Shown piece by piece: positions 8,888 to 14,635 of a stretch of DNA of 64,000 nt. Source of the DNA: Cyanobacteria bacterium CYA (lineage in GTDB: Bacteria > Planctomycetota > Phycisphaerae > Phycisphaerales > UBA1924). The position numbers were made by a program, and so were the translations under genes. Below the pieces are notes generated by a model. The model saw only the letters and a list, made by a program, of their open reading frames with translations. It searched no databases and was not told the DNA's origin. Where the stretch lies: assembly GCA_008363215.1 (NCBI GenBank), contig RHKP01000007.1:113713-177712 (forward strand). The letters run 5' to 3'. The stretch's first letter is position 1. Each line of letters starts with the position of its first letter.

Positions 8888-9081
8888 GAGCAGAGCCTTT
8901 CGCTGTCCTGGACGTGGGTCGTGCGGGTGGCCGCAGTGGCTCAACGCGCCGGACCCAGGTCGAGTTGAGGAGCGCCCCCCCGCCGCGGCGCCCCAACGGG
9001 ATGTGGTTGGCGGGGCAGGACTGTAGGCGGGGGGAGGGCGGCGAGCCGGGGATGGGGGATTGGAGGTCGGCGCTGAACGCA

Positions 9082-9109
9082 GAAAGGGGCGGCTCGTGCC
9101 GCCCCTTTC
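9082..9109 (-). terminator. Strong hairpin downstream of the 9153..9806 gene (possible terminator)
   Basis: GAAAGGGGCGGC-tcgt-GCCGCCCCTTTC is a perfect 12-bp stem flanked by modestly T-rich sequence on both strands. Confidence 0.5.
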
Positions 9110-9152
9110 CTGCCTTGTTCTCATGCCCAGTGCCTCTTGCCCGGTGCCTTCC

Positions 9153-9806
9153 TCAGGCCGCAAGGCCCAGGCTGGTGGTCATCGTCGAGCCGTCGGGTCC
9201 GAACTGCAGTCCCAGCGCGGCCGAGTTGACCTGGTAACTGTCGCGGAAGGCGGCGATGTAATACTCGACGCTGGAGATGCCGGTGGGCAGGGTGGTGTCA
9301 TCGAACCACTTGTCCTTGAAGGTCTTGATCATGGTGAAGTTGGTTTCGCCGGGCAGGCGGCGGAAGACGCCGAAGTAGGCGCTCTGCGCGACCGAGCCCT
9401 TCCACGTCAGCCGGATGCCCCAGGGGAAGATGAAGGTCGCCGTCAGATCGGTCGGCATGTCGGGCGGACCGGCCGGCGTGGGCGGCTTTGGCGGAGGTAT
9501 TTGCGCTACGGCGTAGACGTTGGGGTCGTTGCTGGTTTCCGCGAAGGCGCGGATGGTCTTGATCAGATCGGCGCCGAACTCACTGAGGGCGCTCATGGCG
9601 TTGGTCTGCACCGTCGTGGCGGCGCGCGAGGCCGAGCGTGCCGCCTGCGCATCGTCGAAGGCGTTTCTTGCATCATTGACCAATGAAGCCAGGGCGGTCA
9701 GTTGGGTGGAGGACAGGCCGATGCTGGCGGCCGCGGCGGCCCAGACGGGCGTGTGCTGCTCATAGAAGGCCAGTCGTTCGGCGATCTTGTCGGGGACGGT
9801 GGCCAT
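9153..9806 (-). CDS. Hypothetical protein, helical N-half and beta-rich (FN3-like?) C-half
   Basis: 217-aa ORF with an ATG start and clean coding-like sequence (…TATFIFPWGIRLTWKGSVAQSAYFGVFRRLPGETNF…). No family recognised. Confidence 0.8.
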   Translation of the reverse strand: MATVPDKIAERLAFYEQHTPVWAAAAASIGLSSTQLTALASLVNDARNAFDDAQAARSASRAATTVQTNAMSALSEFGADLIKTIRAFAETSNDPNVYAVAQIPPPKPPTPAGPPDMPTDLTATFIFPWGIRLTWKGSVAQSAYFGVFRRLPGETNFTMIKTFKDKWFDDTTLPTGISSVEYYIAAFRDSYQVNSAALGLQFGPDGSTMTTSLGLAA

Positions 9807-9924
9807 GCGGCCTCCTTTCTTCTCCTGTGTTCCGAAGCGCGATGCAGTCCCGGCGGTCCCGGGGGCCGCACGGTGCGGTCCATCGGCGGCATCGGGTCAG
9901 TGAAGGCCCGACTGAAGCGGAATG

Positions 9925-10770
9925 TCAGAAAGTCGGACAGGAAGTCAATGCCAGGGCCGGCCTTCCCAGCCGAGCAGATCCCAGAGTTGCTGGTTGAACT
10001 CGGCGTAGTAAGCGCTGAGCATGCGGCGTATTTCGGGGTTGATCACGTCGGTGTCGGTGCCCTGCCCCTTCACTTCGTCGGTACGTGTAACTGCGTGCGG
10101 CCGAAGCCCGAGCGGACGCGGCCCGTCGGGCTCGGCCCCGGGGCCGGTGGAGATCAACGGGGATGTCGTTGAAGGTCCATGCCGGCGCGCAGGTATTGCA
10201 TGCGGGGTCGGTCTGGTTGTTGCACCATGTCAGTTCGTCGTCGACAATCGACCAGACGGCCATCTGGTGATGCGCCGAGCCGGAGGCATTCGAGCGCCCA
10301 AGAATGTAGAGCCTGCTCTCGGACTCCGAGTAGTAGAGCGAACTGTTGTCGTTCGTCAGGCCGGGCACTTCGTAGACGCCGCGAAGAGTCAGACTGGGTG
10401 TCGCGCATGGGTCTGCCGCGTCCGAAGCATACTCGCCCATGTCGTAGACATACAGACGAACCTGTGAATCGTTGCCGAACTCGTGCTTGTTCATCGCCAG
10501 CACAAAGACACGGAAATCCCACCACCCGGTGCCCGAGTCGCTCCCGGTAAGCGCGACCGCCATGTCGATCCCCCATGTCGTGTAGAATGGGGCGCAGGAG
10601 GAGCCTTCGATCTGGTCCGGGAGACGGACGTCGAACTTGTGGGTCTTCCCATAGTCGGTGAAGTACATGAGCCGGACGCCGTCGAGGTATTCGGAGACAC
10701 GAGGACCCTTGGTTGGTTCACCAGGACCGCCGGTTCGGTAGGGACGGTTCCAGTCGATCACCGATCCCAT
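9925..10770 (-). CDS. Hypothetical protein; the last ~75 codons look like out-of-frame read-through
   Basis: The first ~200 aa are coding-like (…RLYVYDMGEYASDAADPCATPSLTLRGVYEVPGL…). After ...FNDIPVDLH the sequence becomes R/A/S-rich junk, and another frame there carries a sulfotransferase-like C-terminus. Confidence 0.6.
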   Translation of the reverse strand: MGSVIDWNRPYRTGGPGEPTKGPRVSEYLDGVRLMYFTDYGKTHKFDVRLPDQIEGSSCAPFYTTWGIDMAVALTGSDSGTGWWDFRVFVLAMNKHEFGNDSQVRLYVYDMGEYASDAADPCATPSLTLRGVYEVPGLTNDNSSLYYSESESRLYILGRSNASGSAHHQMAVWSIVDDELTWCNNQTDPACNTCAPAWTFNDIPVDLHRPRGRARRAASARASAARSYTYRRSEGAGHRHRRDQPRNTPHAQRLLRRVQPATLGSARLGRPALALTSCPTF

Positions 10771-10773
10771 GAC

Positions 10774-11607
10774 CTAAAGCCTGTGCCCATAGCTCTCGGC
10801 GGCGCAGTATCCGATCGTGCGCTGGGTCGTCCACACAGGAATGTCGCTGTCGAGCGCGTGGAGGTCGCTCCGCGTTTCATCGGCCAGGTCGTCCGGGATA
10901 TCCGGAGTTGGATTGCCGGTCGCCGGGTCAGTTCCGTCTGGGACATAGTGATATCTGTTGGGTTCGGTCGACTGCCCGTTGAGGCAGAATCTCTGTTGCA
11001 CCTGGGTCCACGGAAAGGAGGTCCCGATCAGTCCTGGATCACAACGGAGAATCCGAATCGTCTTGTTGCGTGGGTCGGTGTCGCTTCTCTGATCACGATA
11101 CGCCGTGCCGCACTCGGGTCCCGCGACATATATATAGCGTGACAGTTGCGACGCGCACATCCCCCACCGGGGCAGGTGAATGGCGAGATCCCCAAGGTCG
11201 TACTCTTGGACCGGCGTAGCGGAGATGAGGTCTCCAGTCGTGTCGTCGAGATCGAAGACAAAATGCCGGAGATAGTGGTGCTGCAGGACCGAGTCCGCCA
11301 CATTGTCTATGCCCTGCACAACAACGTGGAGTCGGCAATCTTCAGGGTCGTCATTGTCGATGACGATCGACGGCGGCTCGAAGCCGCGGCGCGTGGGGGC
11401 GCGTTCGTCGGCGGGCGTGGTCCAGATCTCCGTCCACACTTGCTCCCAAATTGTTGAGCCGCAGTGCCGCTTGTACAGCGTGATGTCGCGACCGTGCACT
11501 CTCTCCTGGGGAGATGCTCCGTCATCCTCCTTGCTCACAAACTGCAGAGAACCACGGTGTCGCAGTACTCGCCGACATGTGCGATCTTCGGGGCGTTTCG
11601 ACCCCAC
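10774..11607 (-). CDS. Hypothetical protein (start uncertain)
   Basis: Coding-like from about ...ITLYKRHCGSTIWEQVW onward. Its stop lies 4 nt before the start of the next gene (operon-like). The N-terminal ~30 codons overlap the 11535..11828 ORF and are doubtful. Confidence 0.6.
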   Translation of the reverse strand: MGSKRPEDRTCRRVLRHRGSLQFVSKEDDGASPQERVHGRDITLYKRHCGSTIWEQVWTEIWTTPADERAPTRRGFEPPSIVIDNDDPEDCRLHVVVQGIDNVADSVLQHHYLRHFVFDLDDTTGDLISATPVQEYDLGDLAIHLPRWGMCASQLSRYIYVAGPECGTAYRDQRSDTDPRNKTIRILRCDPGLIGTSFPWTQVQQRFCLNGQSTEPNRYHYVPDGTDPATGNPTPDIPDDLADETRSDLHALDSDIPVWTTQRTIGYCAAESYGHRL

Positions 11608-11828
11608 AGCGGGCTCGGGTCGGCGGGCGACCAGTTCCCGTCATTGTCCACGAAATCCCCGTACACCGGGTCGTTGATCTGGAGGACGATCGGCCAGTGG
11701 ATCATCGCATCGTTCGAGTCAAACCGCGTGGGGACCGGTGGCCGGCCCCCTCCGCCGCCTATCCGGGCGTGCACGCTGCCGAGCGCCGTGATGGCGATGG
11801 TGATGACGAAAATCGTGCGATCAAGCAT
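11535..11828 (-). CDS. Small secreted hypothetical protein, or the frameshifted N-terminus of the downstream gene
   Basis: Signal-like MLDRTIFVITIAITALGSVHA. It overlaps the start of the 10774..11607 ORF in another frame. Confidence 0.45.
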   Translation of the reverse strand: MLDRTIFVITIAITALGSVHARIGGGGGRPPVPTRFDSNDAMIHWPIVLQINDPVYGDFVDNDGNWSPADPSPLWGRNAPKIAHVGEYCDTVVLCSL

Positions 11829-11996
11829 GGTGAGGCTCTCCGTTCATGGCCGGCTCGCCGCCATGCCAGATTCGGCTGAGTCGGGCACCGCAGATGCGGG
11901 ACAGTGAGGGGTGGGGTGGGCCCAATGTGGAAAAGTCATATGCATCGTTATGTACGGTTGCATCACGATGAGGGGGCCTCCCGGAGGGCATCGTGA

Positions 11997-13448
11997 ATGA
12001 GGTGTATTGATGGCGTGAGGTTCCGTGCGCCGATGACGTCGTTCGCGAAGGCCGTATATATACTGTCCGGCATGCCGCTTGAGCAAGCCATCCGGAGTGT
12101 CCTTCGGGTTTTTCGCCGGGAAGATCGCGCCCACCTGCAGATCGACGCGCCCGCCGGGGAGCCTCAGGTGGGTCACTATCCCGCACTGCCCGGTTGGACG
12201 CCTGACGAAATCGCCATACTCACGCCCGACCAGCTTTCCACCAACCCTCCGCCGCCGGTGCTCAGGGATCCGGCGTTTCCCGACGAGCCGACGCGGCGTC
12301 CTCCGCCGCGGGCCGAGCAGCCCGAGCCCTACCACGCCTACACCCACAATGCCGCCGGTGACGACCCGCCCGAGGACCAGGCCCTCCCGCCCCTGCGGTT
12401 CACGCCGGTCGAGCCGACCTTTCGCCCACAAGTCAGAGTCACTCCGGTCGAGGACGAGGCGGGGCGTCTGGCGGTGTACTACTTTGAGGCAGACACGGTT
12501 GACACGTTCGACTCGCCCAACTTCTGGCGCGCCCCCCACATCCTGCCTTGGAAGGCCAGGTGGGACGTGACCGGCCGCGGGGGTGTCCGCTACAGCATCT
12601 TCCGCAGCGGACACCACGCTCCGCACTCCGGGCCCGTGCTCGAGTTTCCCTTCCGCGCCACGGCGATGCGCCTGCCCGACGACTGGCGGATGCTCAACCG
12701 GGCCGAGCTCGAACGCCACGCGCTCGCGCTCGGCTACGCACTCGACCGGGACGCGACGATCCGCGAGGTCTTCGACTGGGTGCGCCACACCATCGTCTGG
12801 TCGGCCCAGTCGAAGGTGCGATCGACGCTCGACGTCTTCTGCACGGGCGTGGGCGCCTGCGGGCAGGCCAACGCGCTGTGCTCGCTGCTGCTCGAACTCA
12901 ACGGCATCCGCACCAGGGGAGTCTCCGGCTTTGACCCGATCATCCGAAAGGAGACGGACTGTCGCGGCGGCGGGCACTCGGCCGCCGAGTACTACGACGA
13001 GGACAACCAGCGCTGGAACTACATCGACCCTTATCTCGACCTGCTCCTGCCCGGCGTCGCGGCCGCCGACTTTGATGCACACGAGATCGGCGACCTCGCG
13101 CTCGGCACGGCCGCATGCCTCCGCCCGCTGAAGCGCCAGTTCATGTATCGGCGCTACTTCGACCGGCTCAACCGCATGATCCCGGTGAGCATGTTGCAGG
13201 TCGACGGCGACGAACGCAGATGGGGCACGCGGTGGCCGCTGGTCCAGCCGCGTCCCTTCGCGCCCGGGGAACTCTTCCCGGAGACTCAGACCATCCACGT
13301 CCGGGCCCGCTACCTGCTGACCAACGGGCAGCGCGTCCTGCACCGCTCGGTCCGCCCGAACCCGGCCGGCGGGACCGGAGTGGTGGCCTCGCCTTGGGCG
13401 ACGACGGCCTTCGAGATCCGCCCGCGCGAACTTCTGGGGATCGACTAG
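11997..13448 (+). CDS. Transglutaminase-like cysteine protease superfamily protein
   Basis: GVGACGQANALCSLLLELNGIRTRGVSG (Cys), GGGHSAAEYYDEDNQRW (His) and NYIDP (Asp) match the transglutaminase core triad spacing. The N-terminal region is Pro-rich. Confidence 0.85.
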   Translation: MRCIDGVRFRAPMTSFAKAVYILSGMPLEQAIRSVLRVFRREDRAHLQIDAPAGEPQVGHYPALPGWTPDEIAILTPDQLSTNPPPPVLRDPAFPDEPTRRPPPRAEQPEPYHAYTHNAAGDDPPEDQALPPLRFTPVEPTFRPQVRVTPVEDEAGRLAVYYFEADTVDTFDSPNFWRAPHILPWKARWDVTGRGGVRYSIFRSGHHAPHSGPVLEFPFRATAMRLPDDWRMLNRAELERHALALGYALDRDATIREVFDWVRHTIVWSAQSKVRSTLDVFCTGVGACGQANALCSLLLELNGIRTRGVSGFDPIIRKETDCRGGGHSAAEYYDEDNQRWNYIDPYLDLLLPGVAAADFDAHEIGDLALGTAACLRPLKRQFMYRRYFDRLNRMIPVSMLQVDGDERRWGTRWPLVQPRPFAPGELFPETQTIHVRARYLLTNGQRVLHRSVRPNPAGGTGVVASPWATTAFEIRPRELLGID

Positions 13449-13530
13449 GCTCGCTCGCGCGTCATGCCTGAAAACATGCGGAATCAGCGTTGGGAAGCCC
13501 TCAGAGGCGTCGGAGCGCCACATCTGCCCG

Positions 13531-13783
13531 ATCGGAAACGAATTTCCAGCGGTGGAAAATGGAATTCCGGGGCCGGGGAATGAATTTCCGGCGGTCTGGA
13601 ACGACCTTCCACCGCCGGAAAACCATATCGGGGCTCCATCGTTTCATTTCCCGGGGCCGGAAAGTCATAGTCGGTGGCCCCAACGTGATTTCAGGCCGCC
13701 GGAAAGTCATTTCCCATCGCTCCAAATTGGTTTTGGACCGCCGGAACGTGACTCCGGAGGCCGGGATTGCATTTCCGAGGGCC
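13531..13783. repeat. Degenerate tandem array of about 12 units with ~21-bp period; each unit is an imperfect palindrome GGAA-N5-6-TTCC, often flanked by CCGG
   Basis: Units begin near 13534, 13554, 13577, 13598, 13617, 13641, 13659, 13685, 13701, 13724, 13743 and 13764. Examples are GGAAACGAATTTCC, GGAAAATGGAATTCC, GGAATGAATTTCC, GGAACGACCTTCC, GGAAAGTCATTTCC and GGATTGCATTTCC. Confidence 0.85.
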
Positions 13784-13996
13784 CGATCCTGCGGCCCGAT
13801 CGCCCGGCCGCTGGACGCCGTGGCGCACGACCTGGCGCGCTGAGGCCCGGTGTGCCCCGATTGGGCGCCCCGTGGGTCTCGGGCCGCGCGGGGTAGACCT
13901 TGGCGGCGAGGATCACGCCGTCGCGCGTGCGGGCGGCGCGGGCGGGCACGTGCAGCCCTCAGAAGCCCCGGCGCGCTGCCCGGCCGACGAACAGAT

Positions 13997-14635
13997 CTAC
14001 TCCCCGGCCATGTCCGCAATGAAGGCGTTGGCCTCCTCGATCGAGGCGTTCATCTCGTCGATCAGCCTGGCGACGTCGCTCTGCACCGAGGCCACCTCGC
14101 GATCGAGTGAGGCGATGGCGCGCGCGTTGAGGTTGTGCTTGAGAAACAGAACCTGGTCGTTGAAGGCGTCGAGCACCGGCTGCATCCGGGCCTCGGCGCT
14201 CTTCATCGCTTCCAGCAGTTCCTCATACCGCTCCTTCGTGCGGTCCAGTTGCTGCTGGCTGGAGCGCCGCAGATCCTCGCTGTGATACTGCTTCAGTTCG
14301 GCGTTCCATTCCTTGAACAGCGCGCCGGCCACGCGCTCCACGTCGCGGATGCGGTCGCGCACGGTTTCGGCCTGGCTCTCCGAGCGCGTCAGTTCCTTCT
14401 TGAGGCGCTCATAGGTCTTCTCCAGGTCGCCCGTGTCCGCGCTGGTCAGCGCAAGGAACTCATCCAGGGCCGAGGAAAACTGCTCCTTGGCCTCCTGCTG
14501 ATCGTCGCGGGCCTTCTGCACGCGCTCCACCAGTTGCTCACGCTTGGGATTGCCCAGCGCCTCGCGCACGGCGATGCCCGTCGAGGCACAGCCCGCCAGC
14601 ACGATCATCAAGGCCGCAATCAGTATGCTCCTCAT
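13997..14635 (-). CDS. DUF2959-like coiled-coil lipoprotein
   Basis: ATG at 14635 follows GGAGGTG. MRSILIAALMIVLAGC is a lipobox signal. The remainder is long and helical (…KARDDQQEAKEQFSSALDEF…). Confidence 0.85.
   Translation of the reverse strand: MRSILIAALMIVLAGCASTGIAVREALGNPKREQLVERVQKARDDQQEAKEQFSSALDEFLALTSADTGDLEKTYERLKKELTRSESQAETVRDRIRDVERVAGALFKEWNAELKQYHSEDLRRSSQQQLDRTKERYEELLEAMKSAEARMQPVLDAFNDQVLFLKHNLNARAIASLDREVASVQSDVARLIDEMNASIEEANAFIADMAGE

Follow-up and report, generated by a model that had tools for sequence, protein, structure and literature searches.

Tandem arrays of symmetric or pseudo-symmetric protein-binding sites, phased at two helical turns and present in up to 10-12 copies, are known from R1 parC/ParR, pSK41 parC, F sopC, the tandem ARG boxes (18 bp + 3 bp) and the type I K-box of ComK. 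An array of the same geometry lies in a 64,000-nucleotide stretch of DNA from Cyanobacteria bacterium CYA (Planctomycetota, order Phycisphaerales in the GTDB; assembly GCA_008363215.1, contig RHKP01000007.1, positions 113,713 to 177,712 of the forward strand), the whole of which is referred to here as the window. It consists of twelve degenerate 21-bp units in the spacer between two convergent genes. Phased operator and centromere arrays, however, have a high unit identity, an adjacent cognate gene and, where regulators are concerned, further sites in the genome, none of which was found for this array. We give about an even chance to the reading developed below, that it is an old, decaying non-coding minisatellite without a partner protein, and not an operator, iteron or centromere.

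The non-coding satellites of prokaryotes, as surveyed by Subirana and Messeguer (2019; PMC6749651), are likewise head-to-tail, spacerless and intergenic, with sequences private to their loci and a fast turnover. We found neither '21 bp' nor 'helical' mentioned in that survey, whereas lengths of 21, 42 and 63 bp dominate in the two congeneric genomes considered below, and the present array is far more degenerate than those that the usual tools find, having been missed by Tandem Repeats Finder (TRF). BrickBuilt, a minisatellite-bearing MITE (miniature inverted-repeat transposable element) from Porphyromonas gingivalis (Klein et al., 2015; PMC4596501), resembles the class of arrays described below in being always intergenic, with spacerless tandem units of about two helical turns at many loci per genome. 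Its unit is 23 nt long, a single sequence is shared by its 19 loci, and it includes leader and tail modules whose ends are inverted repeats (PMC4596501). In contrast to a MITE-borne minisatellite, our array is single copy and has a private unit, and its spacer shows no similarity to those of other arrays. Repetitive extragenic palindromes (REPs) and bacterial interspersed mosaic elements (BIMEs) share with it palindromic units of alternating orientation, stacked at the 3' ends of genes, with hairpins possible on both strands; REPs, however, are dispersed copies of one sequence, whereas this unit is found nowhere else in the genome.

Architecture of the array

Twelve head-to-tail units align gaplessly in 21-bp steps from 13529 to 13780 and fall into two blocks.

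13529 to 13780, no strand assigned: array of twelve degenerate 21-bp units, consensus CGCCGGAAA-RTSA-TTTCCGG-G, defined by its register, its autocorrelation and a sequence unique in the genome
13529 to 13612, no strand assigned: left block, units 1-4, with the TTCC column identical in each unit and pairwise identities of 11-15/21
13613 to 13780, no strand assigned: right block (units 5-12), super-period of 42 bp, CGCCGGAA... in the odd units

The column consensus, CGC-CGGAAA-RTSA-TTTCCG-GG, is an 18-bp imperfect palindrome with a 3-bp linker, in which arms of 7 bp each (CCGGAAA and TTTCCGG) flank a 4-bp centre. In the left block the centre of the palindrome is shifted 1 bp rightward with respect to the right block. 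The 42-bp super-period is confined to the right two thirds of the array, where the even units are more degraded and unit 10 reads CCAAA/TTTGG. Start-to-start spacings returned by a repeat search were 21, 21 and 21 for the left units and 42, 42, 42 and 20 for the right ones.

The self-match of the array was 0.50-0.52 at lag 21, 0.52 at lag 42 and 0.48 at lag 63, with other lags at about 0.25, and the lag-21 value of 0.52 compares with a maximum of 0.39 across lags 7-63 in 5000 shuffles. The register and the autocorrelation confirm a preliminary description of the locus, which had placed here a phased array of about twelve GGAA/TTCC units, and its phasing at two helical turns is borne out by a 21-bp register that runs through all twelve. 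The same description ascribed a GGAA-N5-6-TTCC palindrome to each unit; exact GGAA-N5-7-TTCC is present in only 5 of the 12 units, the remainder being degraded. The units abut without spacers, and the locus was rightly set apart from CRISPR arrays.

Neighbouring units are identical at 10.9 of 21 positions on average (about 52%). Because of this low unit identity the array was not reported by TRF at a minimum score of 30 and was detected by autocorrelation instead. Set beside iterons, the array has a spacing of about two turns, at 21 bp, and lacks the near-identity of units, with 10.9/21 positions shared. A non-coding minisatellite being a run of at least five head-to-tail units of 10-100 bp outside coding sequence, the array is one.

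With 16 GGAA/TTCC words per 260 bp, the array stands out from the whole 3.57-Mb genome, in which the runner-up segment of this length has 9. Both of the perfect GGAAA-N3-5-TTTCC sites in the entire genome are within the array, and a genome search with the array returned the array itself as the sole match. Its GC content is 0.56-0.61, against 0.66 for the genome. Furthermore, palindromes centred on the linker (TTTCC-N6-8-GGAAA, GC-rich) are equal in quality to those centred on the AT-rich core, so that the array is most simply described as a series of half-sites in alternating orientation about every 10.5 bp.

Coding potential

A codon-usage log-odds score, trained on 787 long open reading frames (ORFs) of this genome, was negative in all six frames of the array, the best reaching -0.17 per codon. 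The corresponding values were +0.27 to +0.31 for the transglutaminase-like gene on one side, +0.58 to +0.68 for the DUF2959 gene on the other, and about +0.3 to +0.7 for other neighbours. GC content at third codon positions (GC3) was 0.52-0.67 across the array frames versus 0.86-0.88 in the neighbouring genes, and the public gene calls for four contigs of the same organism place no gene in the 548-bp spacer. By composition the array is non-coding, and the non-coding status first assumed for it stands. The accompanying remark that all six frames are open does not, since frames +1, -0 and -2 carry 4, 1 and 3 stops, respectively; frames +0, +2 and -1 are open throughout.

As 21 bp equal seven codons, these three open frames could be taken as a sign that the array encodes, or formerly encoded, a heptad-repeat peptide, the more so as three of the genome's further arrays with 21-bp units (C23, C36 and C37b) give neat heptads, for example EIRAISK, with weakly positive codon scores. 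We find this hardly credible for the present array. In addition to the negative codon scores and the low GC3 of every frame, no ATG start is available to the three long ORFs (which begin with TTG, GTG and TTG), the column conservation shows no period-3 (wobble) pattern, and the translated peptides are rich in Arg or Pro and lack amphipathicity. Moreover, a peptide repeat leaves the palindromic DNA units unexplained. Since every unit is palindromic, the two strands translate into similar peptides, and this similarity stems from the DNA, not from a protein.

Unit conservation and the search for a binding protein

The information per unit column is flat, at 0.5-1.2 bits, and the CGC of the linker is conserved no less than GGAAA or TTTCC, a pattern more in keeping with decay after common descent than with selection for a site of recognition. 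Arm complementarity was 4.67/7 within units and 4.64/7 between units, against 3.77 ± 0.22 for shuffled units; complementarity being the same within and between units, the palindromy is inherited from an ancestral consensus and not re-made unit by unit. Unit-specific compensatory changes were tested for and none were found, and in half of the units one arm is lost. Hence the palindromy is neither re-created in each unit, as selection for hairpins would require, nor focused on half-sites, as selection by a binding protein would.

Outside the array the motif is not enriched: GGAA-N5-7-TTCC occurs 145 times in the genome against 128 expected. Sites in clusters were not observed in the 250 genomes scanned from the order, where GGAAA-N4-TTTCC numbers 0-10 per genome, the places listed being scattered singles, and control palindromes gave counts of the same order. 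The array is absent from 40 relatives, in which only the adjoining gene remnant described below was matched. Distant-mode BLAST against 72,556 plasmid and 50,697 phage records gave no similarity to the array, and no Rep, Par or DNA-binding domain was found in the surrounding ORFs with Pfam and NCBIfam.

The preliminary description had likened the locus to iterons, to parC/parS-like centromeres and to cooperative transcription-factor arrays, while recognising no known operator in it. The latter point is supported; the three comparisons are not. Against a role as iterons are the lack of a Rep domain nearby, the chromosomal content of the contig (it carries L9, for example) and the lack of plasmid or phage matches, and against a centromere role the lack of a partition gene among the flanking genes. 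Likewise, a cooperative transcription-factor array finds no regulator gene nearby, and both the flat conservation and the lack of enrichment outside the array speak against it.

A broader version of the same idea is that the array serves as a landing platform, on which protein dimers would occupy the 18-bp palindromes, or half-sites that alternate every 10.5 bp, along one side of the helix and then polymerise, thereby silencing, insulating or organising the convergent gene ends. This mode of action is known from omega-type operators, ParR-type centromeres, ArgR at tandem ARG boxes and ComK at K-boxes. The strict, gapless two-turn phasing through twelve units and the palindromic consensus with 7-bp arms are what such a platform would call for. 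In viral contigs, pairs of this motif at the same spacing are, in addition, enriched over control palindromes, and in three metagenome contigs, unrelated to one another, such pairs are located just upstream of PEP-CTERM genes; they also occur next to a sigma-54 activator gene. We nevertheless consider a platform unlikely here: no candidate binder gene is found nearby, the motif is in excess neither outside the array nor upstream of the 15 PEP-CTERM genes of this genome, the half-sites are no better conserved than the linkers, and half of the units are without one arm. Furthermore, the array is positioned between two 3' ends, where a promoter is not expected, and ten other arrays are phased alike with unrelated sequences. 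Judged on these sequence comparisons, the array looks to be without a dedicated binding protein or regulon in this organism.

Secondary structure and curvature

The folding energies of the two strands of the array are -119.4 and -124.3 kcal/mol, with z-scores of -2.75 and -4.0, respectively, relative to dinucleotide shuffles, although better folding than in shuffles would be expected of any palindromic repeat. A scan for promoters and terminators returned no promoter and one weak terminator-like site, and Rfam 15 at E ≤ 10 gave only chance-level matches to microRNA models, at 18-22 bits against gathering scores of 60-63.

By analogy with the REP and BIME clusters of enterobacteria, the array, if transcribed from either of the convergent genes, might fold into hairpins that stop or pause RNA polymerase or protect the 3' ends of mRNAs. 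The folding of both strands, the convergent flanking genes without canonical terminators and palindromic units that act in both directions are consistent with such a role. Against it, stems formed by single units are mostly weak, A-U-rich helices of 5 bp, half of them degraded, and neither unit-specific compensatory changes nor an Rfam match accompany them. Other arrays of the class are situated in divergent or promoter-proximal spacers. We regard this function as quite improbable.

A wedge model of DNA curvature places the array only within the most curved 8% of genome windows. The same model ranks other arrays of the genome from the top 0.03% down to straight, and curvature as a property shared by the arrays was rejected on these values, which constitute weak evidence.

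A class of 21-bp arrays in intergenic spacers

A whole-genome autocorrelation scan, requiring at least 58% self-match over 126 nt, returned 14 loci at lag 21, 12 at lag 42 and 6 at lag 63, the best other lag having 6. The array described above, with a self-match of about 0.5, falls under the cut-off and is the most decayed member of the class. Spacers were defined by our own codon-score gene finder; after C27 (clearly coding), C22 (ambiguous) and C17 (beside a CRISPR locus) had been set aside, about ten arrays in long spacers remained. The other arrays with a period of 21 or 42 bp, nearly all of them intergenic and given without strand, are the following.

C29:36207-36750
C31:48210-48433
C31:30740-30912
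C36:58780-59000
C37:64020-64150
C37:65731-65982
C25:92220-92470
C26:24400-24590
C23:39620-39766
C17:3963-4170
C32:5265-5838
C39:246-448

Every array is built of a unit of its own, in most cases one with a palindrome in it. The first in the list is made up of about 27 units of TCGTCGTTGACCGATCGACGG, in four sub-types and one strict register, and further units read GAGAACAATTCCGGGCCCC, ACTCTTCGGCAGCGGTGCAGC and GACGGGAGGTCCAGTTTCCTC. For most arrays the codon score is negative in every frame, C23, C36 and C37b, with their heptads, being ambiguous. The neighbours are unrelated housekeeping genes (L17, pheS, mutS, nrdR, an M24 peptidase, an amylase and cas9), and the spacers include convergent, tandem and divergent settings. 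The genome's CRISPR arrays have a period of 66, are on other contigs, and adjoin cas2 and cas9.

The preliminary description had remarked that binding sites at a spacing of two turns would all face one side of the DNA. At least ten other arrays with unrelated units share the phasing, which is therefore a genome-wide feature and no evidence for one dedicated binding protein.

The same period prevails in the congener G001, where lag 21 was the commonest in the 400 kb scanned (5 loci, versus at most 2 for any other lag). The spacer downstream of pheS carries an array in both species: in G001 it comprises 17 units, which belong to several sub-types and keep a perfect 21-bp register, and in the present genome it is shorter, with a different unit set, only the array end and the following DNA being well conserved. 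Arrays thus endure at a locus as their content turns over. Shared tails were seen only for some arrays (C36 with C37b, and C25 with C17), and no similarity was found between the spacer of our array and the other array spacers. A common boundary motif, 'TGTTTTCA', was considered and rejected, as it is limited to the C36 and C37b arrays and absent from ours.

Several side observations concern individual members of the class. A related family based on AGGCCT comprises the arrays at C36:58780-59040 and C37:65731-65992 and one at C1:118894-119334 of G001. It translates to heptads of the a/d type (EAFETML..., EAFNRVM...) and has a conserved terminal hairpin, TGTTTTCAAA(T/C)A(G/A)AAAAG; in its tail, changes between the species are nearly all non-synonymous. 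From its sequence the family could represent small coiled-coil ORFs or upstream regulatory arrays. The 21-bp array at C31:30740-30912, with the unit ACTCTTCGGCAGSGSTGCRGM, is about 1 kb upstream of a cas9-like gene (C31:31977), and a similar array, CCGAACTCTTCGGCAGGCGTG, is present at C1:152557 of G001. Separate from the array described above is a REP-like 17-mer, GGGNCCGGTTTCCAACC, with 23 copies at up to 2 mismatches, located at C32:15263-15810 and in 20 further places. The genome has a single gene for a Y1-transposase (PF01797; C32:15344-15598), with three of the copies on its flanks, and copies also adjoin arrays C25 and C17. The 17-mer and the transposase gene together look like a system of REPs and REP-associated tyrosine transposase (REP/RAYT) in a Phycisphaerales genome, a resemblance read from sequence.

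Genomic neighbourhood and the lineage-specific segment

The array is at one edge of a segment that interrupts synteny with G001, and is surrounded by the following features.

9050 to 13821, no strand assigned: lineage-specific segment of 4.8 kb, boundaries approximate, recognised by the break in synteny with G001
11997 to 13448, plus strand: transglutaminase-core protein gene (Pfam PF01841), 3' end toward the array
13822 to 13949, minus strand: aldo/keto reductase gene remnant of roughly 130 bp and about 40 codons (...RDGVILAAKVYPARPETHGAPNRGTPGLSA...), both ends missing, 80% DNA identity to G001, identified by tblastx and by a reading of the gene in G001
13997 to 14635, minus strand: DUF2959 lipoprotein gene (Pfam PF11172), start read from the sequence, 86% identical in G001, 3' end toward the reductase remnant and the array

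The flanking genes encode the transglutaminase-like protein, the DUF2959 lipoprotein, a PIN-TRAM protein and, as judged from their translations, possibly secreted proteins without an assigned family. The array had been placed between the transglutaminase-like and DUF2959 genes, which is accurate as to the two convergent 3' ends and incomplete in that the reductase remnant intervenes before DUF2959. In G001 an intact aldo/keto reductase gene of 327 aa is found just downstream of the DUF2959 gene. Positions 13822-13949 are the sole part of the spacer that matches relatives, with 80% identity to G001 and 72% to G013.

Synteny with G001 is kept on both sides and breaks between about 9031-9050 and 13821. 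The segment contains four minus-strand genes without an assigned family, possibly secreted, together with the transglutaminase-like gene and the array, and GC and GC3 are lowered within it at 9900-11600; in its place G001 carries only the reductase gene. The remnant marks a replacement or deletion event. No homologue of the transglutaminase-like protein was found at E ≤ 1e-20 in 200 genomes of the order, and contigs with homologues of 60-64% identity have no array behind that gene. In four sequencing runs (SRR23814898, SRR28106883, SRR35759037 and SRR30953397) the contigs of this organism agree at 100% identity over 5-7 kb, so that the sequence is not an assembly artefact.

An array at the edge of a lower-GC segment absent from the congener, with a GC content (0.56-0.61) that resembles that of the segment, might be the relic of a mobile replicon, that is, iterons or a centromere imported with the 4.8 kb, whose rep or par genes have since been lost. 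Its unit length and copy number are within the range of iterons and of parC or sopC arrays. No integrase, transposase, Rep or Par domain is present in the segment, however, and the 72,556 plasmid and 50,697 phage records hold nothing similar. In addition, the transglutaminase-like homologues on other contigs are without such an array, and the same period recurs in many chromosomal spacers beside housekeeping genes. We therefore judge an origin from a replicon to be very unlikely.

Origin and significance of the array

The array is real, unique in sequence and specific to its lineage, and is one of many 21-bp-period arrays in spacers. We propose that an ancestral 21-bp palindromic unit (CCGGAAA-N4-TTTCCGG plus linker) would have been amplified head to tail, its right-hand part as 42-bp dimers, and that the copies would later have drifted to about 50% identity. 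Growth may have occurred via slippage or unequal recombination. A unit length of two turns may have been favoured in that it keeps the copies on one face of the helix, a phasing that could suit a nucleoid protein reading structure, or curved DNA; alternatively, a process might add DNA in 21-bp steps. The copy seen here was probably brought along by the transglutaminase segment and would now be under weak selection at most.

Several observations weigh against a purely decaying, partnerless minisatellite. There are zero gaps in 252 bp despite a divergence of roughly 50% between units, whereas neutral decay should, on a rough estimate, have left several indels; the gapless array thus implies that some selection on phase, or a homogenisation that preserves the register, may act. 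The reductase remnant is still 80% identical to the G001 gene, which suggests that the divergence of the array is older than the local rearrangement, and that 250 bp have thus persisted over a long period. The same-species contigs that were found do not differ from one another, and so there is no population variation to read. Moreover, the paired motif GGAAA-N4-TTTCC was found in 46 viral stretches, about 30 of them from one sample, versus 9, 2 and 1 for three control palindromes, and proteins that read this motif may, to judge from such sequences, exist elsewhere. A constraint on phase may hence act on the array, as on the class as a whole.

For the class we tentatively consider, as a possibility that falls well short of an even chance, that it represents intergenic minisatellites whose unit sequence is free and turns over fast while their length is held at exactly two helical turns (21, 42 and 63 bp), which would imply a phase-sensing reader or generator. 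Candidates would be a filament of a nucleoid protein, a requirement for supercoiling or curvature in long spacers, or a repair or replication process working in 21-bp steps. We know of no description of such a phase-sensing or 21-bp-step process.

Taken alone, an array of this kind would be a decayed repeat of little consequence, and its value is as an entry point to the class. A free unit sequence, a length fixed at 21, 42 or 63 bp and arrays that persist across species point to a constraint on the non-coding DNA of bacteria that depends on length or phase and is invisible to current annotation, as the failure of TRF to report our array illustrates. If real, be it due to a protein or to a physical property of DNA, this constraint would bear on the organisation of long intergenic spacers in uncultured lineages, and the spectrum of tandem periods would provide a simple genome statistic for spotting affected genomes.

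Related motifs in metagenomes and viral contigs

In metagenomes, GGAAA-N4-TTTCC repeated after 6-8 bp was found in at least 120 stretches. Some of the metagenome and viral matches are long arrays in low-GC DNA, and others are pairs immediately upstream of genes for PEP-CTERM proteins or next to one for a sigma-54 activator. One locus (L082) adjoins a gene whose product has a type IX secretion sorting domain (Por_Secre_tail); there, agcgtgcGGAAATCATTTTCC recurs every 21 bp in at least 12 units.

Pairs of palindromes about 21 bp apart are present in unrelated, high-GC metagenome contigs (L087:801-836, L113:3963-3997, L115:7952-7987 and L126:1308-1341), directly upstream of PEP-CTERM protein genes and, in one contig, just after a sigma-54 activator gene. 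Such pairs may, on the evidence of their position, constitute an undescribed enhancer site for PEP-CTERM genes outside the Proteobacteria. The published upstream motif of proteobacterial PEP-CTERM genes includes TTTACA, and GGAA and TTCC are absent from the text (PMC1569441). A link of this kind to PEP-CTERM genes and sigma-54 was rejected for the present genome, in which 15 of 15 PEP-CTERM genes are without these upstream sites.

Viral contigs from one IMG/VR sample (3300045988; L192, L200, L204-L206, L212, L213 and L218) carry arrays of aaacagGGAAAAACCTTTCC with a period of 20 bp. The contigs of this family are mostly about 90-155 kb, and the arrays are often at or near the ends of the stretches examined.

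As a minor observation on the present genome, the tetranucleotides AGCT and CTAG are very rare, AGCT being roughly 13-fold rarer than GGAA at the same base composition, and their scarcity may reflect restriction avoidance.

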